Shown here: positions 13,782 through 55,316 of the stretch, one piece after another
Layout: each line of letters starts with the position of its first letter
How positions within the stretch are numbered: position 1 is the first letter of the stretch
Source of the DNA: Craspedostauros australis
Lineage: Eukaryota
Assembly: GCA_030167865.1 (NCBI GenBank)
Contig: JALAGF010004961.1
Location: forward strand, 1 to 64,000
Direction: 5' to 3'
DNA: 64,000 bases
Made by a program: the position numbers and the translations under genes
Notes under the pieces: generated by a model
Told to the model about the DNA's origin: nothing
The model's input: the letters and a program-made list of their open reading frames with translations, nothing else
The model's database searches: none

Positions 13782-14607
13782 CAGCAGGGCGTGCGGTTAT
13801 TGCGATAGCAACACGACGAATCACATAATAGCTCCAGAGAACATAACCTTGGGGTAAGAGATCGCACAAGCTACGACTATTCATTCCACCCACATCCTAG
13901 ACTTCTTCTCATAGAATAGATTCTCATCGAACACGGTAGTTCCGAAAAGGAAAGCTCTGAACTCCTCGCTTGTCCGTATCTCAGAAACGCACAACATGCA
14001 AGTACTTGTGCCCACGTTCTCGACTCCTCATCCATGTGCGTTCCAAGATTGAACATCGGTGGGAAATGCCGAGGCTGGAGTCGTGGAGGTTGGCGATCAC
14101 ACACAAAGAGGCACGACTAAGAAATTTGAATGAGCGTGGGGAGATCTTGTTCACATCATTCCATTCATGTCAACGCAGCAAACAGATACGATTGCATGCT
14201 CAGGAGGTCCACGGCGATGCATGAACGCATACATGTGTGCATAGCATAACGGCACAGAAGCACACATCACACGGAGATGGAGACACGATGTGGGAACACG
14301 CGGAAAGAGCGAGATGAATGCATGTACTCTGCACGTTGGTGACACGAATGTATGATTGGGTGCACGCTCATCGAGGCATGATCGGACGGGAATATGTGGT
14401 CAGTGTTGCATGTGCTCATGGCCGACTTCACACTTTCTCATTTCGGTCTCGAGCAGCTCTCTCCAGAGACAGAGAGAGACAGAACACAGCAGGAACAGGC
14501 GACGGCAGCATCAACCATAACGATAGCCCCATCGTCCATTGTCCACAAACACACACGCATTCTCGTGCATAGATCGGCCAAAGCGCGGAAGCTCACAGAC
14601 AATCCCA

Positions 14608-16605
14608 ATGATGGACTCCTACTACAGCTCGTATCAACGCGCGGCATGCCTCTTCCTGTTGCTGGCATCATGGGCATTGGGGCAGCAGACACCGCAGGCG
14701 ACCGTCAATGACATCGCCGTCCTTTCCTCGCCGTTCGCACTCGAGCTCACCGATGTGCCGCCGGATCTCGACGTGGTTTCCGAAGGCATCGTGGAGACCA
14801 CCATCCTGGACTTTATCACGAAGGCGCTGCAAGACGGCAACGAGACGGAGATTGTGCTGGAGGATGTGCGGTGGCTGTACTACGACTATCTGCGGACCAA
14901 CACCATGATGGCGCAGACGATGGAGCATGCCATCATCGTCTTTCGAACGTTGGTCGTATTCCGTGACGTCGCAGCCGAAGATCGCAACGCCACCAGCTCC
15001 GATGCCACGCGATTCATCGTGGACGATGCCATCACCGAGACGTTCTCATCGCCATCCTCCAAGCGCGCCTTTGTCGCAGCGTTGCAAGCCTCCAACGATC
15101 CATCGCTCACGGCGGCGTCCGAACCAACCATCGGCGTCTACGAGCCACCGCAAGACGTGCCGGGCGACAATCGCGCAGGCCCCGATAATGACGACGACGA
15201 CGGCCGGCCCCTCGCGGCGTGGGAGATTGCGCTGATCGCGGCATGCTGCGTCATCTTCTGCGCCATGCTGTGCAGCATCCTACAGCATCATCACGACCAG
15301 AGCAAGGCGCTGTACTTGGAAATGGGAGACGACAGCAACTCCACAGCCACCGTGGCCAAGGCGCCGTCCGTGACGAACGACGACGTGTCCGTGGAGGACG
15401 AGTTGGATTACACGGCCGGGCGGTACGCCGATGTGGAGACGGGCACGGTGTGCACGCCGGTCATCACGGATCCGCATCAAGCCGAAACGCCCAAGATGAC
15501 GAACACGCGGCTCATTGAGCCGTTGGAACGACCCGACGAGATCAGCGCGGATGTTTACAGCAATCTGTATTCCCAATTCCGTAGCAAGGGTGACGATGAT
15601 GAGAGCAGCAGTGATCGTGGCATCCAGTTCCGCAGCCGACGCAGCGTGAGCGACGAGCAGCTGATGCACAGCTCGAACTTGCTGGGCATCGCGCCGCAGA
15701 TGCTGGATTCGCAGATGGAAGGCTTCAGCGACGACATGGATGATATCCCTTTGGATGATCCGGACGATGGCAGTGACAGCATGGTGGATAACCGAACGAA
15801 GAGCTCGCTGACGGGGCGTTCGTCATCGTCTCAAGATGTGGATGACAACGACGATGAAGATCTCTCCATCCTCACCGAAAGCCTGGCAAGCGTCGTCTCT
15901 TTGGAGAAGGATGCCGAGACAGTGTACGGTCCCGATTACTACGACGACGAAGGAGGCAGCGGGATGTGTGCGTCCGAAAGCGACGACATCCTATCCTCGT
16001 TGACGGACCAGAGCTTGGAGAGTTTGAAGCCGGAGGAGCACGATCACAAGGAGAACTGGTTTCGGGAAACGAGGGTGAAGCATGCCCTGGCGCAACAACG
16101 GCAACAGCGAGAACAGGCGAAGCAGCAAGAAGAGGAACAACAGCAAGAACAGAAGGAGGATGAGATGCATGAGCAAAAGACGCCAAAAGACACAGACCAC
16201 GTGGATCACGTGGACAACATGTCGACCATCTTTCATGTGGACGCCGCCGAGTACACAGGCGATGGGCAAAGCCAGATGAGCGGCATGTCCAACGTTGCCA
16301 AGTGGCTCGATAACATTCGCGTGGTGGGACGCGACAACCGCCGCCGGCAACAGGCGACTGCGGGACGGCGAGCGAAAGCGAACGACACCCAAGTATCTTC
16401 CAAGACCTCCAAGGAGCACACGTCCATCGAGTCGCCGGGCGTTGTTGACCATGTTGATGTTGATCATCACCATGGCGATGATGACGAAGAGGAACACTCC
16501 TTCAATCCCCCAACCAAGCACGGCAAGAACGAAGACGACGATACCGTGTCCTTGGAAGCCTCACTGGAACACTCGTTGGCGGCATCTTGCGTGTGTTTGT
16601 CATGA
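14608..16605 (+). CDS. Hypothetical type-I single-pass membrane protein with long acidic/Ser-rich cytosolic tail
   Basis: Long ORF with coding-like codon usage. Signal-like AACLFLLLASWALG, ~180 aa globular-looking ectodomain, TM segment EIALIAACCVIFCAMLCSIL, D/E/S-rich tail with a short Q/E coiled coil. Confidence 0.7.
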   Translation: MMDSYYSSYQRAACLFLLLASWALGQQTPQATVNDIAVLSSPFALELTDVPPDLDVVSEGIVETTILDFITKALQDGNETEIVLEDVRWLYYDYLRTNTMMAQTMEHAIIVFRTLVVFRDVAAEDRNATSSDATRFIVDDAITETFSSPSSKRAFVAALQASNDPSLTAASEPTIGVYEPPQDVPGDNRAGPDNDDDDGRPLAAWEIALIAACCVIFCAMLCSILQHHHDQSKALYLEMGDDSNSTATVAKAPSVTNDDVSVEDELDYTAGRYADVETGTVCTPVITDPHQAETPKMTNTRLIEPLERPDEISADVYSNLYSQFRSKGDDDESSSDRGIQFRSRRSVSDEQLMHSSNLLGIAPQMLDSQMEGFSDDMDDIPLDDPDDGSDSMVDNRTKSSLTGRSSSSQDVDDNDDEDLSILTESLASVVSLEKDAETVYGPDYYDDEGGSGMCASESDDILSSLTDQSLESLKPEEHDHKENWFRETRVKHALAQQRQQREQAKQQEEEQQQEQKEDEMHEQKTPKDTDHVDHVDNMSTIFHVDAAEYTGDGQSQMSGMSNVAKWLDNIRVVGRDNRRRQQATAGRRAKANDTQVSSKTSKEHTSIESPGVVDHVDVDHHHGDDDEEEHSFNPPTKHGKNEDDDTVSLEASLEHSLAASCVCLS

Positions 16606-17133
16606 ACCGACACGGGACAATACTCCGCACACACGACTAGAATTTGCCGTTGACATAGTATTTGGATGGAGACGTTAAACGCGACTCATCGCACACGACT
16701 AACCCTAGAAAATCATCCGTTTGAACAAAACGAAGTGTCGCAGAATTGTCTCAGGCTTCGTTCTTTTAGCGCACGCGCGTTGGACGCAACTCAACTGACC
16801 CATGTGGCACTCGAAATGGCGCGGCAGCACGCAGTCGTTCCTGTCAACACTTGGCGAAGAGACCCGCCAAGACAAACACGCTATGAGGGCATCCCACACA
16901 GCCAGAGGCAGAGAGAGACACGGAAGTAAGAACCTCTCAGCTGGGACACAATACATTCGTTTCGTGCCGAATCATCCCGCATCTGCTGCCATCAGAACAA
17001 TCAAGAACAGAAGAATCTTCGGCTCTTGGCTGCTGCTGGGTGACAGGTATCCGAATGCCATAGCTCGTATTCGGCGCACATCTGAGAGTACCCCAACTGA
17101 GAACAGAACAGGGAAACAGAACAGCAGAGGACC

Positions 17134-18627
17134 ATGATGCGAAGGATACGCGACGGCGCCATGGTGACGACCACAGCGTGCGCGGTTCTCATGGTGATCG
17201 TCGCGACGAGCTGCGTGCTGAGCACAAAGGCTTCTTTGACGGAAGACACAAGTCAGGGCTCCAACGCTGACTCTCCCACCACCACTGCATCCACGGCAAC
17301 TGCATCCACAAACACGATAGCCATGGCCAAGATCTCCATGTCCGCGCCCACCAACAACCAGCCCACGGACATGCCCGTGGGCATCGATCGCTTCGATGAA
17401 CCTCATGAGGGTGCTGGAGGTCTCTCCGAAGCTCTCTTCGCTTGCTACGCCATCGTTTCCCTCTTGTTCACCGTGGTGTCCATGCGTGTTGCGCGCTCAC
17501 GGTCCAGCAACGATCATCAAACGACTACGCAGGAGACGACAGCAGCAGCAACAGCAGCAACAGACATTGTTCGCAGTCAGAGCAGCGGCCTCAGACAGAG
17601 GGAATGCAGCAGCGACTCCATCATGTCAATGGCAACCGCAGCAACCTCGAATGCATCAGCCTCAGCGTTGACAACAGCATCATCAACACCTCCCACGAAA
17701 CATGCTTCCGCTTGGCCGGACTCCTTCTCGCATGCGCTGCCTTGGCAGGCGTTCTCATTAGGCGGGATCGCCGTCTCAACATCGCTCCTGTTCCAAGCCG
17801 CGGACACCAAGCTCTGGGCATCCGCTGTCGCCGTCGTTGTCGCATGGTCCGACCAGTACAGCCTGGCGCTGGAGACCTCCCCCATCATCACCAAGTCTGT
17901 CACGTCGGCGGTCATTGGGATCATAGGGGACTTTGGCGCGCAGTGGATCGAGCACATCCTGACATCGACGCACGATGATCATCAGCACCCACCAGCGTCA
18001 TCCGTTGTCACATCTGCTGCCATTACTACCACTCCCACAAACAACCACACTCACACCAACACAAACAACAATCAAGACCAAGAACGTGAGCATACGCATG
18101 CACATGGACACAGCAACAACGACTCCAGGGGCAATACGAGTACCAAGGGACGGTTCCACTTCCTGGATTTACGTCGAGGTTGGGCCTGCGCGGTCGACGG
18201 GCTCCTGCTCTCAGGTCCTATCCTCCACTACGCCTACGATCTGCTCGAGTACATGATCCCCATCGAGGAGGGCGACGGCTCCTCCTTCGCTGCCCTGCTC
18301 CACGTCCTCATCAACGACTTCTTCCTCGATGCCATCTTCGTCGCCATCCTCTTCGTCTCGACGGCCGTCCTGGAAGGCTGTGCGCACGACCTGCGAAGGC
18401 AGATGGCCAACGACTACCTGCCGGCCGTCAAGGCCAGCATCATCTCCAGCGTCGGCCTCTTCCCCATAGAGTTCCTCTGCTTCCGCTTCCTGCCCCTCGA
18501 CTTTCGGGTGCTCAGCATGAACTTCATCGACATCATCTGGGGTGCCATGATCAGCTACATGGCACATCGATCCAGGGGCAAGGCACCAACCATGACCACT
18601 CCGCAGGATGCATGCAAGGCTGATTGA
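17134..18627 (+). CDS. Mpv17/PMP22 family protein, paralogue of 8506-9906
   Basis: PIITKSVTSAVIGIIGDFGAQ, GPILHYAYDLLE, FPIEFLCFRFLPLDFRVLSMNFIDIIW align by eye with the 8506 protein; long Thr/Ser-rich N-terminal extension with hydrophobic segments. Confidence 0.8.
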   Translation: MMRRIRDGAMVTTTACAVLMVIVATSCVLSTKASLTEDTSQGSNADSPTTTASTATASTNTIAMAKISMSAPTNNQPTDMPVGIDRFDEPHEGAGGLSEALFACYAIVSLLFTVVSMRVARSRSSNDHQTTTQETTAAATAATDIVRSQSSGLRQRECSSDSIMSMATAATSNASASALTTASSTPPTKHASAWPDSFSHALPWQAFSLGGIAVSTSLLFQAADTKLWASAVAVVVAWSDQYSLALETSPIITKSVTSAVIGIIGDFGAQWIEHILTSTHDDHQHPPASSVVTSAAITTTPTNNHTHTNTNNNQDQEREHTHAHGHSNNDSRGNTSTKGRFHFLDLRRGWACAVDGLLLSGPILHYAYDLLEYMIPIEEGDGSSFAALLHVLINDFFLDAIFVAILFVSTAVLEGCAHDLRRQMANDYLPAVKASIISSVGLFPIEFLCFRFLPLDFRVLSMNFIDIIWGAMISYMAHRSRGKAPTMTTPQDACKAD

Positions 18628-20901: not shown

Positions 20902-23900
20902 TCAAGAATCAGAGGGATTGTGATCGTCATCGCCACCGCCACCGTCACTGACATCTTCGTCGTCGCTGCCTGCACCTGCGGCTTGTTGGCAGGAAAACAT
21001 TTCAAGCAGAATTGCATTCCTCGCTTCTCCCGCACAGCTTTCTCCGAAGTAAAGCTCGATGGTGTCTCCATCCGTCGCCAATGTATCAAGTGTCATTTGA
21101 GGAAAGACGTCCTGAATGAACATGATAGCATCGCCGGTGCTGACGTGATCACCAAGTGGTTCCGTCCCTCCTTCCGGGGAAACATCCATCCCAACACGAA
21201 ACTCGAAGCTATCCTCCGGGTTCCTGGCGCTGATCCTGCGCATCATCTCGCACAATGTTCCTGCGTACTCTTGCCGCAGCGCCACAGTGTTGTGTTCTGT
21301 GGGTTGGATGCGGCGGACGAGAGCGAACCATAAGTTGTCGCTCTCTGGGTTGGTTGTGTCTGCGCTACGGGGGATGTTGTGATCATCGGGATCGCAGCGT
21401 GCGAGGATGCTGTGGATGTTGAATTCCTGCTGGAGCGCTTGTGAGCGTTCAAGCTCGGTGAAAAGCTGCTCCAATGGAGGTTGCTGGTCTTGGTCTGTGG
21501 CCTTGAAATAGACCAAGATCTCTCCAGAGTCTGTCCCTGCCGACACAGCCTCAACCACTTTCATATCTCCGCCGCTCACCATGCGCGTCTTACCCCACCA
21601 AAAGTCATCCATGTGGAGGAACGCGTACAGTGGAATGACGAAGTAGAGCGTTGGAATGCCAAACATCACGTACATGATGAACCAGAAGAAGTAGCCCCAC
21701 CGAGCCAAGATCAGGGGCGGAAGCATCATCAGGATGAACGTCGCAGTGCAGAAGTATAACACGAACGTGTCGATCGTTTCGGGCTGAGTGGCAAAGAGAT
21801 ATCCCAGGTATCCGAGGTAGGCGATACTGGCCGGAAGGATCATGGTGGCGAGCAGATCTGCGATCACGATGGTCTTCATGGAAATGCAGCAGATACCGCA
21901 CATCGGCTCCACCTTCAACAACTCGAACATGTTGTGGAGTGTGGAGTTGATCCATCGACGACGTTGGCTCAGCAAGATGGAGAAGGTGTGTGGGACGATG
22001 ATCCAGCAGATGGCTTCTGGGACGAGACTCAGCTTCATTCCGGGGAAATGCTGCAACAGCAGCGTCGTGAGCGTGCGATCTTCTCTGATCTCGTAGAGGT
22101 TCTTCTCGTGAAGCGATTCGATGTCGTTGCGGAAGTACTTTTGGACGATGATGTCGGCGGAGATCAAGGGGTTCATGTCTTCGGTGAAAAGTCGGTACAT
22201 GGTGAAGCAGCCTGGGAGACATGTGACGCAACCGAACACAGACTCGAAGGCCTTCTTCATGTGATGGCTTGAGAAGTACTCGAAGACTTGCATCATGGTG
22301 ACCCACGATTGCGCTTTGTTGTCGATTTGGACTTCTCCGCAGCAGGCGAGGACGGTCTTGTTGCGCTTGAGGTGGTAGACCATGTGCTGCATGGCCATGC
22401 GGTGTACGCGGGTGTCGGCGTCGATGGCCATCATGTACTCGATGTCCTTCAGCGGAATGCCGAGTTGCTCAAGCTCGCGCTTCACGACATTATCCAGCTC
22501 GCCTGGCTCACGGTTGTATTGCATGCGATTTAGCATGCCCGTGATCACGAGCTGAGAGTCGCGCCTTCCTCTCCTACCGGCTCGGCAAGTGCCACGTTCT
22601 GCCATCGATCCTTGCTTGACGAGGACCATGTACTTGAGGCGTCGCGTTCCGTTGCCGATCTTCTTTTCGTACACTCCTGCGTAGACAGAGATGTAGTTTC
22701 TCGTGTTCTTTCCCAGGCTTTTGTATTCGTATGCCTCGTCCATGCAATCGAATTCGAAACCGAGGATCTGGCCAAGGATCTCTGGTGTGCTGGCGGTTGC
22801 ACCATATCCGGTGATGACACCGTCAGCCACAACGGTCAGAACCTTGTTCTCCTCAGGGTAGTCATTCAAGAGAACACTATCGATGGCCTTGAGGAGTTCC
22901 TTGCCCGTTTCATTGTAGCATGGCACCATGATCATGACAGCGGCTGACTTGTCCTCATCCGCAAAGTGCGGGTGGCGGCGTGCCAGGTAGTGGAGGGAGC
23001 AGAAGACCTGGATGAGCATCATGAAGGTGACGACGAAGAGAAGGAAGTACATGGCGATACCGATGTTGGAACAGATGCCGTCATAACGATCATCCACGCG
23101 GGCATGGTAGAACATCATGTCCATGCAGTTCTTGTAATCGTTGGTGTTGAACAAGTCGTTGTAAAGTGCCGTCGCATCGTCACCGAGCCTGTTGATGATA
23201 ATTGTATGGAGCTGTTCGACGAGATAGGCATTTGGGTGGGAGTGTTCCTTTGAAATGATCTTGGTCTTTTCGTCGCTGTGAGAGTAAATGCAAGGGTTGC
23301 AAGAAGCGTTAGCTTGGATCAGATCTTGTTTGCAAAGCACATGCCAACAACAACAACATCAACATCAAACTTACCGCAACCCATCGATGTACTGTGTGAC
23401 GTCGTAAATGGTCTTGTCAATAAGGAGGTAGTTCATGGCTTCATCCTTACCAAGGTTCCCTGGTGCGAAAACCAACTCTCCTTCCTGATATCCACTAAGG
23501 ATGCTGTGTACACCTTCGCGGCCGATGACGTTGGTGTGACAGTAGGTCTCGTCCAATGCATTATCTTCGTCGCTGATGTTTGGACAGCCCACATCGCTCA
23601 CCAGGGACGAGTGCTTCTCGATATCAAGGCAGACCGTGGGGAGTGCAGCTGGAGGTGGACGTGGAAAGAAACGGGATACATCCTGACCCAGGTAGTCGCG
23701 GATGCTATGTGAGCTGCCACGATGCTTGCCGATGTATTGCTTGACGTCGTAGATGGCACCAAAGATCACAATCCAGGCCTCGCCTCTTAGTTCACCAATG
23801 TCTTTTTGTGTGTACAAGTCGGATGGTGGGCACAAGAAGATGGGGAGGAAGCCGATGCCACCCACAATCGCGAAAGAGACGAACAGAATGATAAGGCAGA

Positions 23901-24645
23901 TGGTGACTTTCTCACGCCATGCCTGTTTAGCAAGGGTGCGGTTCTTCGGGACCAGAGAATCAGGAATGAAGCACGTCATGACCACGGAGAGGGACTTCCA
24001 GAATCGCGAGCCCGGTGGATTTTCTTCACGTACGTAATCGTCGATGGGGTCTGCGTACTGCTGCGTGGCACGTTGTGGAGGGCTTGCACTCGAAAGAGAG
24101 GACAGTGTGATTGAACTCGGAACTACCGACCGGTCGGGCTCCTGGAAACGTCGAGGCGGTGACAAGCGGGTTGACCGCATGAATCCATCGCCGCTAGGCA
24201 GGAACCCATCACCTTGCGCATCTCTGGGATGGCGGACCCGCATGGGATCTGCAAATCGTGACGGGCGAATTGGCAACGTAGGTATATGGATGCGAGGCAG
24301 GAACCCATCACCTTGCGCATCTCTGGGATGGCGGACCCGCATAGGATCTGCAAATCGTGACGGGCGAGTTGACAGCGTGGATTCATCGCCGCTAGGCAGG
24401 AACCCATCACCTTGCGCATCTCTGGGATGGCGGACCCGCATGGGATCTGCAAATCGTGACGGGCGAATTGGCAACGTAGGTATATGGATGCGAGGCAGGA
24501 ACCCATCGTCCTGTGGATCATCGATGACGCTGCGTGGCCATATCTCGTCAGTGGTGCGATCATAGACGATACTATCGGGAATGTTGGAGAGCGCTGGGTC
24601 GTCCAAGCCGCTGAGAGAAGTCGCACGCTGCCGAGACGAAGACAT
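20902..24645 (-). CDS. CHS: Chitin synthase CHS-C, 2 exons, ~1214 aa; open frame but degenerate at conserved motifs
   Basis: Exons 24645-23375 and 23275-20902; intron 23374-23276 (GTAAGT...CACAG, 99 nt). Retains QVFEY, EDR, QRRRW; altered HRGS, GRRGRRD, IREDRT, DDFWWGKTR. Start codon uncertain. Confidence 0.85.
24186..24507 (-). repeat. In-frame 99-bp tandem repeat (~3.3 units, A-B-A-B' order) inside CHS-C exon 1
   Basis: GGCAGGAACCCATC recurs at 24197, 24296, 24395 and 24494. Unit = RPSRFADPMRVRHPRDAQGDGFLP plus a 9-aa segment alternating RIHIPTLPI / SGDESTLST. Confidence 0.95.
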
Positions 24646-24932
24646 CAGCCCTTGTTGCGATAGCTGGTGCTCTTTCTGACTTGCTGTGTTGGCGATGTTT
24701 GAAGGATCGGATGAATGGCGGAGACTCCAGAGACAAGCCAAGTTGGAAGGCAGAGATCCTTGATTTATGGTGATGTCGATGCCAGAGTTGGAGGTTCCCC
24801 ATCACGAACAGCGTGTACGTATCATCGTTGGCTGTTCGCACACACTCATTCGAGCGTATCTTCGGGCGTACCTGCGAGCTAAGTTGCCCAAGGGGTCCGT
24901 GCGCAAACAGAAAGCAACCCATGTCAATAGTA

Positions 24933-27760: not shown

Positions 27761-28560
27761 ACGGTCGCGCGTTTGTGATCGTGCGGAGAAGCAACAGTCT
27801 TCAACGAACATTCGAACCATTGAGAATTTCATCTAACATGCGTCCCGAACAAAATGCATCCGGCAATGATTGCAACTTGATATGCCAACGCAGGCAGTAG
27901 CTATCCATGAGTTTGCGTCTGAGAGAACGCCGAATGGGAAGAAAAGGAAGCACACGTAAATCGACAAACTTAAACATTCACGTATTCTACCCAACTCTTC
28001 TTCTCTGAGGGCATCCACCTGGCCAATCCTTGCAACATCTTCTCCCTCCTTTGAATGGCATTATACGTACATGGAGCGTCGAAGGCGTCGTTGCGTGATC
28101 TCTCTGCTGCGAACTGTTGGCCAAACAATTCCTTCCCATGATTTCCAATGCCCACATTTTGACTGACCGTCGACAGTGTGGTTCTGAGGATGATGTCGGC
28201 ATCGGAAAGCGAACCCCAACCGAAGAACACGTTCTGTTTCTCCGCCTCTTCTCGATCCGTTCGCATTCGCAAACACTCTCAACTGTTCTCCTTTGTTCCT
28301 CTTTGTCGTCGATCCTCTCTTGTGGCAGTGTTTGTGGCGGTGTTGTTGCGTACAAGAGCAAGGCGAAAGGTGAAAGAGACCTCATCTGCCGTGGATTGAG
28401 CGGTAAGATGGAGGCGTGGGCATCGTGGAACGCAAAGCTCATAAATTGAGCAGTTTGAACACATTGAAGCAACACCACCACCTGTCAAGATCCATCAAGA
28501 TCCATCAGCAACCACAGATAATAGCAGCGGCACATAGTACAATAGCCAACCTAAGAAACC

Positions 28561-30144
28561 ATGCAGAACGGAACTGCTGCTGCTGCTCCCCGGGAACCTT
28601 CCGACCGCGTGCGGGTCTCCTTCGCGCACGCGGATGGCGAGACCAGCGCTGCCGGACCGCCCTTCGTGTTGGTCAAGTACTTCCTGGATCGGCAGGGCGG
28701 ATACGGCATCGACAACAGCAGCGCGCGGATTTGGAGGCAGCCACCGCCCAAGTGCACGGCCAGCGACGTGCGGGCCTTCTTGCGACAGCAGGGCATCCTG
28801 CCGCCATCTCGCAACGACGACAGTGGCAACAGCGACGGGAGCTCGCTGCCCCATGACATCCTGGCCGAGGTGTACTTGTCCGAATTCACATGCTACATGC
28901 TGCTGGACATGTGCGAATTGGAGGGCATCACATTCGATTTCAGCGCGACGTCGACGCAGAGTCCTGGCGTGCTCAACATCCGGCTGACGGATGTGGAAGT
29001 CAACACGCGGCCGGAGGTCGACGCGGCGGCCATGGCCATCGCCGAAGAGGAAGACTACTCCGGGACTACGTCCGAGAACAGCGAGGAACGGGCGCCGAGC
29101 GGAGCTGGTGCGACCAAGGCACGCAGATCCAAGACGGAGAGCACGTCCAAGCAAGGCGGCACGGTGGACAAGGAGACGATGCAAGGGATGGCGCAGGGAT
29201 TGAATGTTCCAGCAGCTGCGAGCACTGCCTTTCCGATGGCTTCCGGCACACCCCCAATCGTGCTTGCGTCGCCGTCGTGGTTCGGTTTGGCAGACGCGTC
29301 CCAGCAGACGACACCATCCACGTGCTCGGCGGTGCCCATCGGTCTGTACGCATTCTCCCTCACGGTGCTGATGGAGGTCATCGACCTGTACCAGAAACTC
29401 GCCGGCGGAGTCGATGAATCGTTCGTGCTGACGTGGGGACCGTACGCCTTCTGGATATCCGGATTCCTGCAGGTCCTGGTCGGCATCATGGAATGGACCC
29501 GCAACAACATCTACGGTGCCACCGCCTTTCTGGCATTCGGATGCTTCTGGCTTGCGAACGGCACGAAGATCATCCTCAAGAATTACTTCCCCGGTGAGAT
29601 CGCCCAGGACGTGCTGGAGGATGACGATCCGGTTGGCAACTTCCTGCGCAACCTGCACATCCTCGGCTTCGTCTGCGTGCTCTTCAAGGCGACGCTGACG
29701 ATGAACCGCCTCAGCACGACGTTGATCTCGCTGCTCATCGTCCTCCTCATCTTCACATCCGTGGCCCTGTGGGATGAGACATTGGAATGGATCCAGGCCA
29801 TCTCCGGAACCGTCGTGTCATTGTTTGCCTTCTACGTCTTCACGGCCGAGTTCCTGAACGAGGTGTACCACGACGAGCTGATGCCGCTGTATCCGTGGTC
29901 GACGGAGAGTCCGAAGGAAGCCTTCGGTGCTGCTGGACGTTCCACCAAGCTGGTATCCGCCAAGGCAACAGCGACTGCAGCAAGCGAACAGGCCACCGCC
30001 ACGGCCGCCATGGTGGTCGCATTGCGCAACGCTCACGCCGTCGGAGGCACCAAAGCCCCCGCCAGCAACAACAAGGACAACAGCAGCAACACGTCGCCAA
30101 GTGTGCACCAGCTGCGTGGCGTCCAGCCAGTCTCTGAAAAGTAG
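28561..30144 (+). CDS. GPR1/FUN34/YaaH (SatP/AceTr) family acetate/ammonium-type transporter with extra N-terminal domain
   Basis: AVPIGLYAFSLT, GFLQVLVGIMEWTRNNIYGATAFLAFGCFWL and ~6 TM helices ending FYVFTAEFLN; ~250 aa soluble N-terminal extension. Confidence 0.82.
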   Translation: MQNGTAAAAPREPSDRVRVSFAHADGETSAAGPPFVLVKYFLDRQGGYGIDNSSARIWRQPPPKCTASDVRAFLRQQGILPPSRNDDSGNSDGSSLPHDILAEVYLSEFTCYMLLDMCELEGITFDFSATSTQSPGVLNIRLTDVEVNTRPEVDAAAMAIAEEEDYSGTTSENSEERAPSGAGATKARRSKTESTSKQGGTVDKETMQGMAQGLNVPAAASTAFPMASGTPPIVLASPSWFGLADASQQTTPSTCSAVPIGLYAFSLTVLMEVIDLYQKLAGGVDESFVLTWGPYAFWISGFLQVLVGIMEWTRNNIYGATAFLAFGCFWLANGTKIILKNYFPGEIAQDVLEDDDPVGNFLRNLHILGFVCVLFKATLTMNRLSTTLISLLIVLLIFTSVALWDETLEWIQAISGTVVSLFAFYVFTAEFLNEVYHDELMPLYPWSTESPKEAFGAAGRSTKLVSAKATATAASEQATATAAMVVALRNAHAVGGTKAPASNNKDNSSNTSPSVHQLRGVQPVSEK

Positions 30145-30353: not shown

Positions 30354-32393
30354 TTATGGCGAGACGACGACCGTCGGGCACTTGTTGGTGCCCCACAGAC
30401 ATGTCTCATGCTCTTCATTTTCGTACGGAATGCAAACGCGCGTGTTGATGTCCTGGCACGGACCGTCGGTGTTGTAGGTGCAGCCGGTGCATCGCACCTC
30501 GGTGATTGGACCGTTGCCTTCGCCAGGGCCGGGTTGCGATGGAGGTGTCCATGGATCGCCTCCGACCATGTCGGCACACAGGATGGTGCCGGGTGGGCAG
30601 TTGCCGTCGGAGTCCCAGAATGGCCAGCAGACAGTGTTGGAGGACTTGCAGGGACCGGCGGTGCCGTGGAAGCAGCCCGTGCACATTCCGGCTGCGTCTG
30701 TGGGTGTGCCTTGCGGCACGTCGATGACTTCATTGACGGGGTTGGAAGGTGCCACGACGTCGACGATGGTTTCTCCCACATCCTCGGTTGGTGCGCTGGT
30801 TGGTTCCGGATCAGGCAGGGTCGTGGGATGGCTGGTGGGCGATGCCTGAGGATCCTGTGGCGCGGGAGTGACCGCCACCACTTCCCCGGAATCCTTGATC
30901 CCGCAAAGCTTGGCACCGACGGTACTGGCGGCCTGACATTCGTCCGGGGTCTTGGCCCAGTTGACGCAGGATGGGTTCATGGCGAGGGAGTACTTGAGTC
31001 CGCACTGTCCGTCGCTGCAGCCCGAGCACAGGGCCTCCTCCGTGTACCACTTGCCGCGGGCTGGCTGCGCGGCGTTACCGGCACCCGTGAGGCTGTACTT
31101 GGTGGGGTTGTAGATGTGACGCAGGGCGCTGAGGGCCTTCTTGAAGTTGTTGAATCTGTCGCCTGGCTCGTGGACGTTGCCGGCGCCTTGGCAGAAGAGG
31201 GCGGGGCAGCCGCGGTTGACCAGTCCGGATGTCATGTCGACGAGATTGCGCGCCTCGGCGCTGCTGGGGTCGTCGAAGATCTTCACGGCGTTGAGGTTGA
31301 GGGACATCTCGAAGTCGTAGTTGGGGAACTTGGACTTGTTCTCGTATCCCTGCACGTCGAAGACCCAGTAGAACATGCCGGAGATCCACTTGAGTTCCGG
31401 TGGTCCGTCGCAGATGAGGTTGGGTGCTGTGCAGAGGTTGAGGTCTGGGTAGGACGCCTGGATGCTGGGGTCCTTGGATGGCTGGCCACCGTCGTAGCGC
31501 GTTCCCGTGAGGTAGTAGTTGAGCTTTCCGACGTTGCAGGGCCCGGTGGTCTGGATGACGCCGCGTCCCCACCAGCAGCAACCCTCTACGTCGTAGTGGA
31601 TCTTGCCTCCAGCGGTGTCGATGGCGTCGGTGTTGGCGCATCCCTTGGCGGAGTCGCAGCCGCCGTAGGTGAAGTATCCTGAGAACTGCCCCTCGTAGGC
31701 GTTGCACTCGTGCTTGTTGACGCCTTCGAAGACGGCCTCCTTGATGTAGTCCTCCGGGAATTCCGGGACGTCCGCGTAGCCGGCCGGGCCGCACTCGTTG
31801 TTGTAGGCCCAGCGCGGCAGCTTGTCGCCCGTCATGGAGCGTGGCGCGCAGAAGAGCGGCGGCGGGGCGCCACCCCAGGCAGCCATGGTCTTGGCCTGCA
31901 CGGCCATCTGCGGATCGACCGGGCACTCCATGTATGACTCCTGGGCGCTGCAGTGGTACTCCATGTAGTCCTGCTTCTCCTGACCGCAGGCGGCGGTGAT
32001 GGGGTAGTCGGGAACGCGCAGGTTGATGCTCCAGTTGTTCTCGTCGCAGGCGTTGTACTTGATGGTCTCCTTCATGGCCTGCGCCAGGAACATGGCGAGG
32101 TTGATGAGGGCGGCCTCCTCGGACTGGCCCACCAGCATCTTGCGCTGCGAGATGCCGCTGTTGATCATGAAGTCGTAGGCCTCCACGAGGTCGTTCCAGC
32201 GGTACTCGGTGGACTGCTCCACCTCTGTGGCCGTCTTCTGCGAGATCAGCACGTATTCGTTCATGATGGTCTCCGCGTAGCTCGTGCGGAAGGCGTCCAG
32301 CACGGCGGAGTTGATGTCACCGTTCACGGTGGCCAGTGTGGCCATGCTGAGGGCCATGGTGGCCATCCAGCTCACTGGTGCTGACAGTCTCAT
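30354..32393 (-). CDS. Secreted GH19-type chitinase with Pro/Thr linker and Cys-rich C-terminal repeats
   Basis: Signal peptide; FLAQAMKET (cf. GH19 FLAQxxHET catalytic Glu), ACDENNW, DVEGCCWWGRGVIQTTG.CN.G, W..GMFYW; P/T linker; two CTGC...GPC...VC...C..GT..C units. Confidence 0.85.
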   Translation of the reverse strand: MRLSAPVSWMATMALSMATLATVNGDINSAVLDAFRTSYAETIMNEYVLISQKTATEVEQSTEYRWNDLVEAYDFMINSGISQRKMLVGQSEEAALINLAMFLAQAMKETIKYNACDENNWSINLRVPDYPITAACGQEKQDYMEYHCSAQESYMECPVDPQMAVQAKTMAAWGGAPPPLFCAPRSMTGDKLPRWAYNNECGPAGYADVPEFPEDYIKEAVFEGVNKHECNAYEGQFSGYFTYGGCDSAKGCANTDAIDTAGGKIHYDVEGCCWWGRGVIQTTGPCNVGKLNYYLTGTRYDGGQPSKDPSIQASYPDLNLCTAPNLICDGPPELKWISGMFYWVFDVQGYENKSKFPNYDFEMSLNLNAVKIFDDPSSAEARNLVDMTSGLVNRGCPALFCQGAGNVHEPGDRFNNFKKALSALRHIYNPTKYSLTGAGNAAQPARGKWYTEEALCSGCSDGQCGLKYSLAMNPSCVNWAKTPDECQAASTVGAKLCGIKDSGEVVAVTPAPQDPQASPTSHPTTLPDPEPTSAPTEDVGETIVDVVAPSNPVNEVIDVPQGTPTDAAGMCTGCFHGTAGPCKSSNTVCWPFWDSDGNCPPGTILCADMVGGDPWTPPSQPGPGEGNGPITEVRCTGCTYNTDGPCQDINTRVCIPYENEEHETCLWGTNKCPTVVVSP

Positions 32394-32395
32394 GG

Positions 32396-32442
32396 TTGCC
32401 TAATGTCTATTGATTGCCTAATGTCTATTGATTGCCTATTGA
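32396..32442. repeat. 18-bp tandem repeat (2 copies plus a partial) directly before the chitinase ATG
   Basis: ttgcctaatgtctattga x2 followed by ttgcctattga. Confidence 0.9.
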
Positions 32443-35871: not shown

Positions 35872-38800
35872 ATGAACCACGGTGATTGGGACACGGACAG
35901 CCGCAGCGTCCATGATTTCGCTGCCGCAGGAGACGACGATGAGTACGCCGATCTCAACGACCTCAGGCATCACCCATCGCATGAGATGTACCCCGATCCC
36001 GCGACGCTGCTGCGGCCCAGATCACAATCGCGCCGAAGAAATCCCAGCAGCCACTCGGGGTATTCCGGCTCCACCCTCTCGAGCGACGAATTCATGCCAA
36101 GTGCAAATCCCTCTGGCCACCAGTTCACGGCACAATTAGCAGATTTCAACCCTGTTCCTCCCATCCGTTCGAGCAGGTCGCTTGCCAGCGGAACGGACGT
36201 GATGGCCAGCCCGCCACTGCCCGTCAAATCCAAGCAATCGATTGCGACCGTGGATACGAACGTCTTGCTGCAACAAATGGAGAGCATCCAGCAAGAGCTG
36301 CAGCAGAGGTCCATGGACAGTTCCTTTGTTGATGTTGCTCTCAATGGCAATGGCAATGGCACTGGGAACAGCATGGGCAACAGCGTTGGCAACGAAAACG
36401 GCTCCATAGACTCGCTCGGTTCGTTCGACGACTTCTACGCCGACGATGCCCCCGATGATGAGCAGCAACAGCCCAACAACATCAAGCCTTTCAAGGCCGA
36501 CAGCCGGCGCGATTCCGACGGGAGCATTCAAGCGTCCGGTGCGAAACTGCGCCAGCTCTCCAGGGAGAACTCGGCCCTGATCTCACGTTTGCACCAACTC
36601 CAGATGGAAAACATGCAGCACTCCGCATCCGGCGGCTTCATGGAGGACGATTCATCTTACCAAAGCCACTATAGCGCGGGCAGTCGCCGCAGTCGAGGTA
36701 GCCGTCACAGCAGCCGCAGTCTCGGCAGCCCCGGCCATCACAGCCCCGGCTACCACAGCCCCAGGCCTTCTGCTCACTCGCGATCCATGATGCGCGGAGG
36801 TTCCCCCTACGGTGACGTCTCAATCCCGCGAACCGGCATTCCGACGTACGCTTCACCATCGCTGATACCACCAGAGGCGATGTTCCACATCCCAACGCCT
36901 CCGCATTCCGACACCGAATCGGTTGGCAGCTATCATTCGAGGTCCTCCGCGCGCAGAGCCAGCGCCCTTCCCATCCCGCAATCACCTCGAATCTCCTCGC
37001 CCTACGCCCGGACAGCAGCAGGACTCGGAAGCATGCACGCCGCCGCACCCACGAGGCATTTCAGCGAGCAACAGTTTGCCTCTGGCTTCGGTCCGGCAGC
37101 TCCTCCCTTCGCTCACGCAAGGACTGGCAACCCACAGCCACCGCTCAGAGCCCACAGCTACGATGGCCGCTCGCACGCTCCATTTGCGCCGACGGTCGAC
37201 GATTTCCACGAGGTTCATCACGTTCCGCGCGATTCGCACTCCGTGACGGGTGGCGAAGCGTGGTATCAGCCACCACCCAGTCCGCACTTGGTCTCGCCAC
37301 CGGGCCATTTCGCGATCCCAGTGACAAGCTTCCACCGGCACTCGTACACTGCCAGGAATACGAGATCACCTGCAGGCGCCGCGCAGCAACCCCCTCGCTT
37401 CCTATCTCAGCCACTGCCACAGCCAGGGTTGGTGCATTCATTTCAGCAAAGTCCGGTCTCGTACAGCGGTCTGGAAAATCCATCCTTCTCCACCATCCCG
37501 GATGACATCGCCTTCGGTTCGATGACCGACGATATGTTGGCACGAAGTATGGCAGGAGACGTGCACGATGACCATTCGTTGGTGAGCGGGGATGGATCCA
37601 GCCTTCCCACCCGCCGTTTGCAGTCATCTAACTCGGTCAAATCTCAAGCACGCCGGCCATCGGGCAAAACCACCGCTACATCGCTGCACTCCGGATCGAG
37701 CCACACCAAGAAGATCAAGTCACAGCAGTACGCCGATCCCATCAACGACTACGAGCCAGTCGACAACCCGCCGGGGTCTCGCTTTTGGAAGTCCCTCTCC
37801 GTGGCCATGACGTGCCTCATTCCGGACTGCCTCATCCCCAAGGAAGAGGACAGCCAGAAGCTGGCATGGCGCGAGAAGGTCACGATCTGTCTCATCGTCT
37901 TCTTCATCTCCGTCGCGATCGTGGGTGGCATCGGCTTCCTCCCCATCTTCCTGTGCCGCGCATCAAACTTCTACTCACAGGAGGAAATCAACAACCAAAG
38001 CGGCGAGGCCTGGATCACGATCTTCGGCACAATCTACGATGTCAGAGGTTATATCAGCCGCCATCCCGGCGGATCCCAGGGCATCCGCGACTACCTGGGC
38101 CAGGACGCGACCGAGCTCTTCCCACGTCCGCCTCCCGCCGCGCTTCCCGCGTTCTGTCTCGACGTGCAGAAGAACTCGTCTCTGGTGGAAGATGTGGGCT
38201 GCCCGCAGCTGGAAGAGCTGGATGACCTTGATTCCGCTGGCGCCTTCTGCCACACAACCATCGTTGGTCGCGAGGGTGTCCAAGAAGCGTTTAGTGGCTC
38301 CAGGGAGGGCGAAGTCGTCATCCCTGCATGGAAGCTCGGCGAGGATGAGTCCATGAGCTACGTTATCCTTGACAAGACGATCTACGACGTGTCGCAGTAC
38401 ATCGATGGGCTGCGGTAAGTCAATCGGGGCCATCGTCCAATCAGTGTCGTTGTGCACAATGCATTTGCTGCAAGTGCACGCGATAACATACGCACAAACA
38501 CCATCCCACTCATTGCACCCTTTCTCCTTTCTTCTTTGCAACCTTCTCACAGTGACGAGAAAACAAGGGTAATTTCTGGTGACCATTCCCATCCAAACGC
38601 CTATCTCGTCGAACAGCTCCATATGCTTGTCACCAACAAGCTCGGTGACGATGCGACGGCGCTTTACAACGACTTGTTCAACACCAACGATTACAAGAAC
38701 TGCATGGACATAATGTTCTACCATGCCCGCGTGGATGATCGTTATGACGCCATCTGCTCCAACATCGGTATCGCCATGTACTTCCTCCTCTTCGTCGTCA

Positions 38801-41256
38801 CCTTCATGATGCTCATCCAGGTCTTCTGCTCTCTCCTCTACCTGGCACGTAGCCATCCGCACTTTACGGATGAGGACAAGAAGGCAGCCGTAATGATCAT
38901 GGTGCCATGCTACAACGAAACGGACAAGGAACTCCTCAAGACCATCGATAGTGTTCTCTTGAATGACTACCCTGAGGAGAACAAGATCCTGACCGTTGTG
39001 GCTGACGGTGTCATCACCGGAGCTGGTGCGACAGCCAGCACGCCAGAGATCCTTGGCCAGATCCTCGGTTTCGAATTCGATTGCATGGACGAAGCACACG
39101 AATACAAGAGTCTTGGTGAGAATACCAGGAACTACATCTCTGTCTACGCAGGAGTGTACGAAAAGGAGATCGGCAACGGAACGCGACGCCTCAAGTACAT
39201 GGTCCTCGTCAAGCAAGGATCGATGGCAGAACGTGGCACTCGCCGAGCCGGTAACAGAGGAAAGCGTGACTCTCAGCTCGCCATTGCTGGTATGCTGAAC
39301 CGCCTCCATTACAACCGTGAGCCAGGTGAGCTGGACAACGTCGTGAAGCGCGAGTTGGACCGTCTTGATATCCCACTGAAGGACATCGAGTACATGATGG
39401 CCATCGACGCCGACACCCGCGTCCATCGCATGGCCATGCAGCACATGGTCTACCACCTCGAACGCAACAAGACCGTCCTCGCCTGCTGCGGAGAGACCCA
39501 GGTCGACAACAAGGCGCAATCATGGGTCACCATGATGCAAGTCTTCGAGTACTTCTCGAGTCACCACATGAAGAAGGCCTTCGAGTCTGTGTTCGGTTGC
39601 GTCACATGTCTCCCAGGCTGCTTCACCATGTACCGACTTTTCACCGAAGACATGAACCCCTTGATCTCCGCCGACATCATCTTCCAAGAGTACTCTCGCA
39701 ACGACATCCAGTCCCTTCACGAGAAGAACCTGTACGAGCTCGGAGAAGACCGTATGCTCACGACGCTGCTGTTGCAGCACTTCGCAGGAATGAAGCTGAG
39801 TTTCGTCCCAGAAGCCATCTGTTGGACCATCGTTCCCCATACCTTCTCCATCTTGCTGAGCCAACGTCGTCGATGGATCAACTCCACACTCCACAACATG
39901 TTCGAGTTGTTGAAGGTGGAGACGATGTGTGGTATCTGTTGCATATCGATGAAGACCATCGTGATCGCAGATCTGCTCGCCACCATGATCCTTCCGGCAA
40001 GTATCGCATACCTCGGATACCTGGGATATCTCTTTGCCACTCAGCCCGAAACGATCGACACGTTCGTGTTATACTTCTACGCCGTGACGATCATCCTGAT
40101 GATGCTTCCATTCCTGATCCGTTCTCGATGGGACTACTTCTTCTGGTTCATCATGTACGTGTTGTTTGGCATTCCGACATTCTACTTCATCCTTCCTCTG
40201 TATTCGTTCGTCCACATGGATGACTTCTCGTGGGGTAAGACGCGCATGGTTAGCGGCGGAGATGCTGCGACGAAACCAGCGACTGAAATGACGGAGCCGT
40301 TGAAGAAGGAAAAGGAGCCATCGAACGAAACGAAAAAAACTGATGCCCAATCCATACGCGAAGGATCGGCCGGACAAAAGGTCCGGGAGGCCGAGGCAAG
40401 AGAGGATGACGAGATACTGTCACTTTCCGAGACCAGCGCCGGGACGTCCCAGCACAATTCTATTCGTGACGGCAACTCAGGCAGGTCCATCTCCAGATCC
40501 CTCCGATCAAGATCTAAGCAACGAACTTCCGTCGCCGCAAAGCAGCGTTCCAAACCCCAATCTGCGACTGTGGTTGAGGCCGTGTCGGTCGGAACTGACT
40601 CCGGAGAGATCTTGGTCTACTTCAAGGCCCCAAATGAAGACCGGCAGCCTCCATTGGAGCAGCTTTTCACCGAGCTTGAACGCTCACAAGCGCTCCAGGG
40701 GGAATTCAACATCCACAGCATCCTCGCACGCTGCGATCCCGATGATCACAACATCCCCCGCAGCGCAGACACAACCGACCCAGAGAGCGACAACTTATGG
40801 TTCACTCTCGTCCGCCGCATCCAACCCACAGAACACAACAGTGTGGCGCTGCGGCAAGAGTACGCAGGAGCACTGTGCGAGATGATGAACAGGATCAGCG
40901 CCAGGAACCTGAAGGATAGCTTCGAGTTTCGTGTTGGGATGGATGTTTCCCCGGAAGGAGGGTCGCAACCACTTGGTGATCACGTCAGCACCGGCGATGC
41001 TATCATGTTCATTCAGGACGTCTTTCCTCAAATGGCACTTGATGCATTGGCCATGGATCGAGACACCATCGAACTTTACTTTGGAAGAAGCAACGCGGGA
41101 GAAGCTAAGAACGCCATCCTGCAAGAAATGTTCTCCCGTCAACAGGCCGCCGGTGTAGGCAGCGACGACAACGACGGCAGCAGCGCGAGCATCGAGGGCG
41201 ACAGCAACGTCGAAGATGTCAGTGACGATGGCGATGGCAATCCCTCTAATTCTTGA
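35872..41256 (+). CDS. CHS: Chitin synthase CHS-D, 2 exons, ~1748 aa
   Basis: Exons 35872-38414 and 38553-41256; intron 38415-38552 (GTAAGT...CACAG, 138 nt). HPGG, GNRGKRDSQ, QVFEY, LGEDRMLT, QRRRW, SWGKTR all intact. Confidence 0.95.
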
Positions 41257-45600: not shown

Positions 45601-47412
45601 TACATGATGGCCATCGACGCCGACACCCGCGTCCATCGCATGGCCATGCAGCACATGGTCTACCACCTCGANNNNNNNNNNNNNNNNNNNNNNNNNNNNN
45701 NNNNNNNNNNNNNNNNNNNNNNNNNNNNNNNNNNNNNNNNNNNNNNNNNNNNNNNNNNNNNNNNNNNNNNNNNNCACATGAAGAAGGCCTTCGAGTCTGT
45801 GTTCGGTTGCGTCACATGTCTCCCAGGCTGCTTCACCATGTACCGACTTTTCACCGAAGAAATGGACCCCTTGATCTCCGCCGACATCATCTTCCAAGAG
45901 TACTCTCGCAACGACATCCAGTCCCTTCACGAGAAGAACCTGTACGAGCTCGGAGAAGACCGTATGCTCACGACGCTGCTGTTGCAGCACTTCGCAGGAA
46001 TGAAGCTGAGTTTCGTCCCAGAAGCCATCTGTTGGACCATCGTTCCCCATACCTTCTCCATCTTGCTGAGCCAACGTCGTCGATGGATCAACTCCACACT
46101 CCACAACATGTTCGAGTTGTTGAAGGTGGAGACGATGTGTGGTATCTGTTGCATATCGATGAAGACCATCGTGATCGCAGATCTACTCGCCACCATGATC
46201 CTTCCGGCCAGTATCGCATACCTCGGATACCTGGCGTACCTCTTCATCACTCAGCCAGAGATGATCGATCCGTTCGTGGTGTACTTCTACGCCGTGACGA
46301 TCATCCTGATGATGCTTCCGTTCCTAATCCGCTCTCGATGGGACTACTTCTTCTGGTTCATCATGTACGTGTTGTTTGGCATCCCGACATTCTACTTCAT
46401 CCTTCCTCTGTATTCGTTCGTCCACATGGATGACTTCTCGTGGGGCAAGACGCGCATGGTTAGCGGCGGAGATGCTGCAGCGAAACCAGCGACCACGGAA
46501 ACCGAAGCGGAACCGAAAGCACTCGACACGGACGACGCGGGTACCAAGAAGAATCAACCGAAAGGCGCGCAATCAGCCGGTGATGCTTCGAGCTGGAAAC
46601 CGTCGTCTGCCCGCGATGATACTGAGGTCAACACCGATTTCGGCACCGCGTTTGAGACAGAGACTGGTGATTCGGGTTCCATGCAAAGGTCAGTCGCAAG
46701 AATGGAAGCACCACCAGCTCGCCTCCGCACCATGGCAACGGCATCGACGATCAGTGCCATCACCCCAACCACCAGAGGACTTCACTCGCACAGGTCGAAG
46801 GAGCGTCGCGTCGAGGATCAGCGCCCTCAAGAGATGGTCAACGCCATCTCGGTCGCAACCAGCTCGGGGGAAATCCTCGTCTACTTTCAACAATCCAAGC
46901 AAAGGAAGCAACCGAATTTAGCCCCGCTCGTCGACAAGCTCGTCACGTCCGACGCCATGTGCCAGAAGTGCAGCATCGACGCCATCCTGACGCGTGCCGA
47001 CCCAGTGAACCCCGACATCCCCCTCACCGCCGATCCTCTGGATCCTGAAGAGTCCGAAGTGTGGTTCGTCTTTGTTTGCCGCGCGAAGACGGCGCAGTCA
47101 AGCAGCTACTCCTTCCGCAAGCAATACGCAGAATCCTTGTGCACTGTTCTGCAAGGCATGCACAGCAACATCTTTGAGACTGAACTCGCCTTTCAGTTTG
47201 GCAAGGACATCACCCCGCCCGAATCGAAGCGGCCGCTGGGGGATTACATCACCAACTTGGACGTCGTTGCATACATCCAGGACATTGTTCATCCCAATGA
47301 CGGTCCCTCAGGTTCATCGGCAATTGGCAGAGAGGCCATCTCTACGTACTTCGGCAAGGATCGTATCAACGAGATCGTGGAGGTGATCGCAAACCTTTCG
47401 CAGGAGGAGTAG
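42614..47412 (+). CDS. CHS: Chitin synthase CHS-E, 2 exons, ~1525 aa (contains a 103-N gap)
   Basis: Exons 42614-44541 and 44763-47412; intron 44542-44762 (GTGAGT...AACAG, 221 nt). HPGG, GNRGKRD, LGEDR, QRRRW, SWGKTR intact; the QVFEY region falls in the gap. Confidence 0.92.
45672..45774. other. Assembly gap (103 N) in the CHS-E catalytic core
   Basis: Run of N; same length as the homologous CHS-D segment 39462-39564. Confidence 0.99.
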
Positions 47413-53000: not shown

Positions 53001-55316
53001 TTGGGTGATATCCTCGGTTTCGAATTCGATTGCATGGACGAAGCGCACGAATACAAGAGTCTTGGTGAGAGTACCAGGAACTACATCTCCGTCTACGCAG
53101 GAGTGTACGAAAAGAAGATCGGCAACGGAACGCGACGCCTCAAGTACATGGTCCTCGTCAAGCAAGGATCGATGGCAGAACGTGGCACTCGTCGAGCCGG
53201 TAACAGAGGAAAGCGTGACTCTCAGCTTGCCATTGCTGGTATGCTGAACCGCCTCCACTACAACCGTGAGCCAGGTGAGCTGGACAACGTCGTGAAGCGC
53301 GAGTTGGACCGTCTTGATATCCCACTGAAGGACATTGAGTACATGATGGCCATCGACGCCGACACCCGCGTCCATCGCATGGCCATGCAGCACATGGTCT
53401 ACCACCTCGAGCGCAACAAGACCGTCCTCGCCTGCTGCGGAGAGACCCAGGTCGACAACAAGTCGCAATCATGGGTCACCATGATGCAAGTCTTCGAGTA
53501 CTTCTCGAGTCATCACATGAAGAAGGCCTTCGAGTCTGTGTTCGGCTGCGTCACATGTCTCCCAGGCTGTTTCACCATGTACCGACTTTTCACCGAAGAC
53601 ATGAACCCCTTGATCTCAGCCGACATCATCTTCCAAGAGTACTCTCGCAACGACATCGAGTCCCTTCACGAGAAGAACCTGTACGAGCTCGGAGAAGATC
53701 GTATGCTCACGACGCTGCTGTTGCAGCACTTCCCCGGAATGAAGCTGAGTTTCGTCCCAGAAGCCATCTGCTGGACGATCGTCCCACACACCTTCTCCAT
53801 CTTGCTGAGTCAACGTCGTCGATGGATCAACTCCACGCTTCACAATATGTTCGAGCTGTTGAAGGTGGAGACGATGTGCGGTATCTGCTGCATTTCCATG
53901 AAGACCATCGTGATTGCAGATCTGCTCGCCACCATGATCCTTCCGGCCAGTATCGCATACCTCGGATACCTGGGATATCTCTTTGCCACTCAGCCCGAAA
54001 CGATCGACACGTTCGTGTTATACTTCTACGCTGTGACGATCATCCTGATGATGCTTCCGTTCCTGATCCGTTCTCGATGGGACTACTTCTTCTGGTTCAT
54101 CATGTACGTGATGTTCGGCATTCCGACATTCTACTTCATCCTTCCTCTGTATTCGTTCGTCCATATGGATGACTTCTCATGGGGTAAGACGCGCATGGTT
54201 AGCGGCGGAGATGCTCCGACGCCACCGCCAGCCGTCGTCAAGGACGGCAAGAACCCGGAGAAGGAAGACACCACCGACAAGCAGAGCTCCACCGATGGAG
54301 AAGAGAAGTCCCTCAAGGATGACAAATCCACCGATGACGAGAAGGCGTCGAAGGACAGCAAGACAGTCAAAGACGATGCGACCGCTAAGGATGAATTGTC
54401 CACCAGAGACGGCAGAACCGTCAAGGGCGACGTATCCGTACGCGGTGACAAGCCTGCCAAGGGGGATAGATCCGTTCGTGGCAACAGTTCTGTCCGAGGC
54501 GGCAAGTCCGTCAAGGAAGATGCTTCCATCCTCGACAGAGGTGACGCCAGTGTGCACTCCAGACGCAGCACACGATCCTCGGGCACAGCGAGATCTGGCG
54601 GAACCGCACGCAGAGGAAGAACCGTGCAGGCCATCACCACTGGTACCGACTCCGGAGAAATCCTCGTCTACTTCCAGAGCACGCATTCCGAGAAGCAGCC
54701 GTTCCTGGCACCGCTCGTCAAGGCTCTGGAGGAGTCCGAAGAGCTGCGTCTCGAGTACAACATCGACGCCATCCTGACGAGGCCGAATCCAACAGACCAC
54801 ACCATCCCGCTTCGCGCAGACCCAAGCGACCCCGACGAGGATGAGGTTTGGTTCGTCCTCGTGCGCCGCATCAGGTCCCTGCGTGAGAACAGCCGGGCAT
54901 TCCGCAAGACCTACGCCGAGTGGCTCTGCCTCCTCTTCGCGGACCTCAGCGCACGTCACAAGAAGAAGAGCTTCGCCTTCCGCTACGGCAAGGACATCAC
55001 GCCGGAAGATGGCACTGGTCCGCTCGGTGATTACATCACAACGTCGGACGCCATCGCCTACATCCAGGACGTCAACGCTAACATGGCCCTGGAGTCCCTG
55101 GCTCTCGATCAAGACACGCTCTCCCTCTACTTCGGAGAGGACCGTCTCGGTGAGGCTAAGAACGCAGTCCTCGAGGAGATGTTCGCCCAAGCGCAGGAAG
55201 AGGACGACGATGACGAAGACAGCGTCGAAGTCGATTCCTACGACAGCGGTTCCGATCAGGATCGCTGGGACGAACGCAGAGGCCAGCCCGGCAACCAGAG
55301 CCGCAGAAGGTACTGA
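50064..55316 (+). CDS. CHS: Chitin synthase CHS-F, 2 exons, ~1706 aa
   Basis: Exons 50064-52369 and 52502-55316; intron 52370-52501 (GTAAGT...TACAG, 132 nt). All catalytic motifs intact. Confidence 0.95.

Follow-up and report, generated by a model that had tools for sequence, protein, structure and literature searches.

A folded tail domain on chitin synthases of the diatom Craspedostauros australis and its relationship to an uncatalogued family of free-standing proteins

Five chitin synthase (CHS) genes of the raphid pennate diatom Craspedostauros australis end in a conserved block of sequence, which raises the question of what this block is, where it came from and what it does for the enzyme. 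All five lie in the stretch of DNA analyzed here, positions 1-64,000 of contig JALAGF010004961.1 (the window). In the focal gene, exons 35872-38414 and 38553-41256 (+) splice to a single open frame of 1748 amino acids (aa), and the block, hereafter the tail domain (40573-41148), is in frame at the C-terminal end of the open reading frame (ORF) 38419-41256, behind the WGKTR motif and a 108-aa linker. An earlier note had proposed that the block is a candidate new cytosolic module for assembly or regulation and that it does not look like the DEK_C domain found at this position in fungal class V/VII CHS. Our preferred reading, to which we assign a probability of about 0.5, is that an accessory gene of a mobile element was fused once to a CHS, lost its nuclear features and now acts as a tethered docking module that distinguishes paralogues.

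First, we focus on the identity of the domain. A Pfam scan of three full tails returned no family at E<=1, and the suggestion that the block matches no described domain held up. The structure model is confident and consists of two parts: an alpha/beta part (residues 1-130, 40573-40962) with five strands and helices at 29-44 and 91-110, and a three-helix part (40978-41148), which ends in a conserved YFG motif and a long helix and is shared with the free-standing relatives discussed below. No clear structural match to the model was found. The nearest likenesses include two-layer alpha/beta folds, namely the Rev1 palm (7t18), the GyrA tower region (5iwi) and the C-terminal domain of TRCF (2qsr), as well as homeodomain and helix-turn-helix bundles for the helical end. 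The helical part, taken from the whole-tail model, has three helices and aligns weakly with many bundles. The tail is a genuine folded domain outside the described families.

Copies of the domain follow the WGKTR motif and a linker of variable length on all five CHS, at the places where the earlier note had located them. Compared with the focal tail, the copy at 20971-21555 (-) is 88% identical and nearly linker-less, the copy at 54621-55205 (+) is 52% identical and the copy at 46837-47409 (+) is 34% identical. A genome search with the focal tail recovered these three full copies (E 2e-109, 2e-61 and 1e-32) and two further ones on contigs C807 and C2567 (E about 1e-40). The fifth copy in the window (2886-3302, -) had already been recognized as short and divergent: it is 25% identical to the focal tail, comprises the alpha/beta part only (profile positions 1-110), and no remnant of the helical half is found behind its stop. 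It scores 40.8 bits with a hidden Markov model of the other six tails as compared to a best score of 5.7 in 999 shuffles, and is a genuine but shortened homolog. Searched with PF03142, the genome contains nine CHS loci, seven of which carry the tail; it is absent from the CHS genes on C1746 and C4012. Furthermore, the tail is joined to a CHS core in three transcript-derived proteins, P0001 (MMETSP1442 Craspedostauros by its label), P0002 and P0003, which correspond to the 20.9-kb, 46.8-kb and C2567 copies, respectively; the tail of the 46.8-kb copy is the same as that of P0002. Both P0001 and P0002 have the look of paralogue mosaics, and no transcript reproduces the focal copy letter for letter.

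Sequence comparison indicates that the tail did not originate as part of a CHS and instead corresponds to the main part of small free-standing proteins that form a diverse family. At E<=0.001, a tail profile retrieved 56 proteins from 1.84 billion representatives, two of them CHS transcripts and 54 of them non-CHS proteins of 145-420 aa (E 6e-14 to 1e-3), which align over both sub-domains and most of the profile length. In the reverse direction, each of four separately profiled subfamilies detects six of the seven tails in a search of 1840 frames (best E 4e-10 to 4e-31), a test that is not wholly independent because the members were gathered with the tail profile. Two single free-standing members used as queries each detect five tails in the whole genome at 18-25% identity. 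With these two queries no free-standing copy is found in this genome, as expected for a patchy gene. Outside small subfamilies the free-standing members are about 15-30% alike. N-terminal extensions of at least 25 aa are net basic in 42/43 cases and contain an S/T-P-x-K/R motif in 34/43, and C-terminal extensions are net acidic in 36/42, suggesting the build of small nuclear, nucleic-acid-associated proteins. Thirty of the 54 clusters were looked up: one derives from the transcriptome of a cultured diatom, Pseudictyota dubia, two are unannotated NCBI records, and the remainder come from JGI, ENA or Logan, mostly from short contigs. More than 50 clusters, a confident model and the lack of a Pfam or clear structural match define a new protein family. 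A literature search, whose coverage did not extend to subscription papers, found neither the tail domain nor the free-standing family described, nor a link between CHS and Helitrons. The domain and its fusion to CHS appear to be undescribed; CHS with accessory C-terminal domains are a known kind, as are host genes that take up transposon parts.

Among the CHS examined, the domain is confined to a single Craspedostauros-type clade. We examined the best 120 of 4096 CHS homologs plus P0001, of which 118 had tails of more than 15 aa. Only P0001, P0002 and P0003 have the domain (3/118); the other 115 tails do not match (the tail profile gives a best E of 0.8 and the family profile one of 0.05) and read as disordered. 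The proposal of a new module thus stands as far as an uncatalogued folded domain is concerned; it does not extend to a general diatom CHS module or to an origin within CHS. In a quick tree of 47 CHS cores (nine of this genome and 38 homologs; two rows without a clean core were dropped), the seven carriers form one branch without a tail-less member (SH-aLRT support 95). In the family tree (60 domains, the partial P0131 left out), the seven tails likewise form one branch (99/96), which lies inside the family next to a 16-member free-standing clade (98/86). Taken together, the two trees point to a single fusion into CHS. Many Thalassiosirales-type CHS (P0013-P0048) have a short conserved C-terminal motif of their own, YxxAxEA...RRxxC, after a disordered tail; it is unrelated to the tail domain.

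The tails are under purifying selection. In the six full tails the proportion of synonymous differences is 0.66-0.82, which is near saturation, and that of nonsynonymous differences 0.33-0.46. The ratio of nonsynonymous to synonymous rates (dN/dS) is 0.15-0.39 where defined, with 0.39 in the only unsaturated pair, and 0.07-0.19 in the CHS cores. Between 37700 and 55300, the tandem cores show patchy DNA identity of 82-100% and the tails are saturated at silent sites; the tail at 54621-55205 sits on a core 98% identical to the focal one. The patchy identity may reflect sequence exchange (gene conversion) among tandem copies or, in part, mis-assembly or assembly collapse. The family positions I47, R53, V80 and R94 are kept in all seven tails, and D124, L134 and YFG in all six full tails. 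W97, present in 45 of the 54 free-standing proteins, is replaced by Y or H in every tail, G123 is replaced in all six and N106 is kept in one. Moreover, the net charge of the tails is -8 to -22 as compared to a family median of -4 (p 0.0006, overstated because the sequences are related).

Where did the donor gene come from? One metagenome scan yielded three contigs, 99.9% alike, that encode the free-standing member P0123. Its gene lies about 230 bp from, and tail to tail with, an ORF of ~2,200 codons that contains an HUH motif together with DUF6570 (E 2e-8), Helitron_like_N (E 1e-7) and the beginning of a PIF1 helicase (E 2e-13). On the other side, the gene is flanked by another PIF1 fragment, a gene with a BTB domain and an ORF that looks like the second half of the helicase; to the left of the P0123 gene there is a 131-bp direct repeat with alternative flanks. 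A contig bridges the P0123 gene and RepHel in 4/4 runs, the same element throughout. According to PMC11417382, DUF6570 is almost exclusive to HLE2 elements, and Helitron-like elements contain 20 captured Pfam domains, most of them in separate ORFs. The family resembles the accessory genes described there (RPA, Ssb-like OB, OTU, EN; HELIANO) in forming, in its one context, a separate ORF beside a DUF6570 RepHel of HLE2 type. It differs from the 20 domains in that its folded part matches no Pfam family and a single element ties it to Helitrons. A known cargo of the RPA or SSB type was considered and rejected: OB-fold and RPA profiles match neither the tails nor the 54 relatives, and the model is alpha/beta plus helices. 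On balance we lean towards the free-standing family being accessory genes of diatom Helitron-like transposons and the tail being of Helitron origin.

Alternatively, though with clearly lower probability, the donor may have been an ordinary fast-evolving diatom host gene for a small nuclear protein, the Helitron neighbor of P0123 being a single capture or a chance insertion. Such a donor would agree with the single context, with the frequent capture of host genes by Helitrons described in passages of PMC11417382 and with the member expressed in cultured Pseudictyota. It agrees less well with the missing free-standing copy, given that both queries detect tails at 18-25% identity, with the low similarity among members and with the lack of a named organism for 29 of the 30 clusters looked up.

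Assuming a Helitron donor, the proposed history is as follows. An uncatalogued family of small fast-evolving proteins, probably carried by diatom Helitron-like transposons as accessory genes, would have provided one copy that, in the ancestor of the Craspedostauros-type clade, became joined in frame to the end of the last exon of a division-2 CHS. Tandem duplication would then have spread the fused gene to seven genes. The tail would have lost its basic N-tail and several family-conserved surface residues and become more acidic, with its hydrophobic core kept, and would now most likely be a tethered cytosolic protein-docking module. Sequence exchange would keep the tandem catalytic cores alike while linkers and tails diverge, and hence it would be through the tail that each paralogue differs in partner, place or oligomer. 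In the oomycete enzyme of solved structure, the SWG motif is found on a cytoplasmic loop (PMC12653383), and the focal protein has five predicted membrane segments and no hydrophobic segment after residue 1395. Thus, the tail is probably cytosolic, in agreement with the earlier note. We consider the docking role itself slightly less probable than even; the tail may also have a role in assembly or regulation.

The tail might instead be a tolerated passenger, read through into the CHS frame and kept folded only because misfolding would harm the enzyme, with no partner of its own. We regard this as rather unlikely. While the retained residues are mostly core positions, the surface residues of the family drift, one copy is shortened and other diatom CHS have free, disordered tails, six of the seven copies keep the whole 185-aa frame despite saturated synonymous sites and adjacent linkers of 8 to 171 aa, and a stop codon after WGKTR would be an easy way of loss. 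The passenger and host-gene explanations do not exclude parts of the docking-module history. It is improbable that the tail, as the helix-turn-helix likeness of its end might suggest, still binds nucleic acid, e.g., DNA once freed by proteolysis, or RNA at the membrane. Least probable is an origin of its last 55 residues, by divergence, from the DEK_C of a fungal class V/VII-like ancestor: position, size and the three helices agree and the enzymes are division 2 with a cytochrome b5 (cyt-b5) domain, but PF08766 matches neither the tails nor the 54 relatives and hits two other loci and no CHS in the genome, hhalign gives a probability of 0.1-2.4% against these two DEK_C-like stretches (a shallow template), and in the free-standing proteins the helices belong to the domain itself. 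In line with the earlier note, there is no evidence that the tail is DEK_C. The likeness to fungal class V/VII CHS, which in passages of PMC5122149 and PMC12653383 are division-2 enzymes with a small helical domain at the end, of a kind known otherwise from nuclear proteins, would be one of functional analogy. Unlike DEK_C, the tail is three times as long and has an alpha/beta part; the fungal myosin motor domain was not found in the exons scanned here. PMC12653383, where it treats DEK_C on chitin synthases, leaves the role of that domain open.

Several observations weigh against the docking-module history. Two CHS genes of this genome have no tail and the 2.9-kb copy has no helical half, and therefore the tail is dispensable for a CHS; pairs with this copy reach dN/dS 0.62. 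The patchy core identity could partly be mis-assembly of a draft genome. In a prediction shown in PMC10134812, the C-terminus of T. pseudonana CHS1 is drawn outside the cell. The family tree is rooted at midpoint only, 4 of the 54 free-standing proteins have a hydrophobic N-terminal segment, and the charge and extension statistics compare related sequences only and not ordinary diatom proteins as a control. A single element (1/1 with DNA) provides the Helitron link, its context covers 1 of the 54 representatives, no ends are defined for it, and its helicase stops after motif III and may be defective or split. Finally, no RepHel remnant lies near the CHS genes, and none was found in the genome by searches run without a positive control.

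Even so, the family is seen here in a single fusion to a cell-wall enzyme. Should the Helitron link be true, it would represent a new class of transposon accessory protein together with its domestication into a membrane enzyme. The carriers offer a direct way into what accessory C-terminal CHS domains do. A more far-reaching scenario, which we put forward only tentatively, is that diatom Helitrons carry an unrecognized accessory protein of undescribed fold with chromatin-protein-like tails, that one raphid lineage domesticated it as a cytosolic targeting or oligomerization module of an expanded CHS family in parallel to DEK_C of fungal class V/VII, and that divergent tails on near-identical cores direct chitin synthesis to different sites.

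By architecture, the tail carriers are division-2 chitin synthases (compare passages of PMC12653383 and PMC5122149), with predicted chitin synthase activity. Each CHS gene in the window has two long exons and one GT-AG intron at a common position (38415-38552, +, in the focal gene). The focal exon 1 (35872-38414, +) encodes a long disordered N-terminus, the first membrane helix and a cyt-b5-like domain (PF00173 E 1e-15). In exon 2, the catalytic core (Chitin_synth_2, E 1e-152) with intact EDR, QRRRW and SWG motifs, membrane helices and the WGKTR end (38553-40245, +) is followed by the low-complexity linker (40246-40572, +), the tail domain and an acidic C-terminal extension with the stop (41149-41256, +). 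Chitin_synth_2 (PF03142) was found in the four second exons scanned (E 1e-142 to 1e-153) and the fifth CHS by the genome search; a cyt-b5 region is present in the four first exons scanned or read (PF00173 E 1e-15 and 9e-14 in the two scanned). EDR, QRRRW and SWG occur in 6/7 carriers, the exception being the 20.9-kb copy, with WWG and altered residues around EDR. The order of an N-terminal membrane helix, a cyt-b5-like domain, the Chitin_synth_2 core and the three motifs resembles that of diatom division-2 CHS such as T. pseudonana TpCHS1 (class IV-like; PMC10134812). Unlike TpCHS1-type enzymes, which end short and disordered after SWG, the carriers add a folded domain of 190 aa.

The genome of this raphid pennate diatom has at least nine CHS loci, with a cyt-b5 division-2 build where examined; in passages of PMC5124317 and PMC10134812, by contrast, division 2 is assigned to centric diatoms. 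The CHS at 20902-24801 (-) is possibly a decaying or catalytically altered paralogue: GNRGKR is changed to GRRGRR, LGEDRM to IREDRT and SWG to WWG, it lacks the linker and exon 1 contains in-frame repeats; transcript P0001 matches it. An N run at 45672-45774 masks part of one CHS core in the window.

Further observations concern the surroundings of the Helitron on L033. There, at 2946-4280 (+) and 11080-16902 (-), RepHel ends after motif III and an ORF like the second half of the helicase lies about 7 kb off on the opposite strand; a further first-half fragment is located at 8278-9312. Together they suggest a split or fragmented helicase. One contig contains a 1166-bp segment between the 131-bp direct repeats (6749-8045) that other contigs lack. 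The adjoining gene at 4604-6652 (-) encodes a BTB/POZ domain (E 4e-16) fused to a further region, whose motif is like that of a nucleotidyltransferase, and is a possible cargo gene.

Within the CHS cluster of the window, 30354-32399 (-) encodes a protein of 681 aa whose N-terminus is hydrophobic and whose C-terminal repeats are rich in Cys; its motif is like that of GH19-type chitinases, but no Pfam family or PDB sequence matches it. The remaining genes noted in the window are ordinary: two of the Mpv17/PMP22 family (8353-9906 and 17101-18627, +), a GMC oxidoreductase (11574-13781) and a GPR1/FUN34/YaaH transporter (28555-30144).
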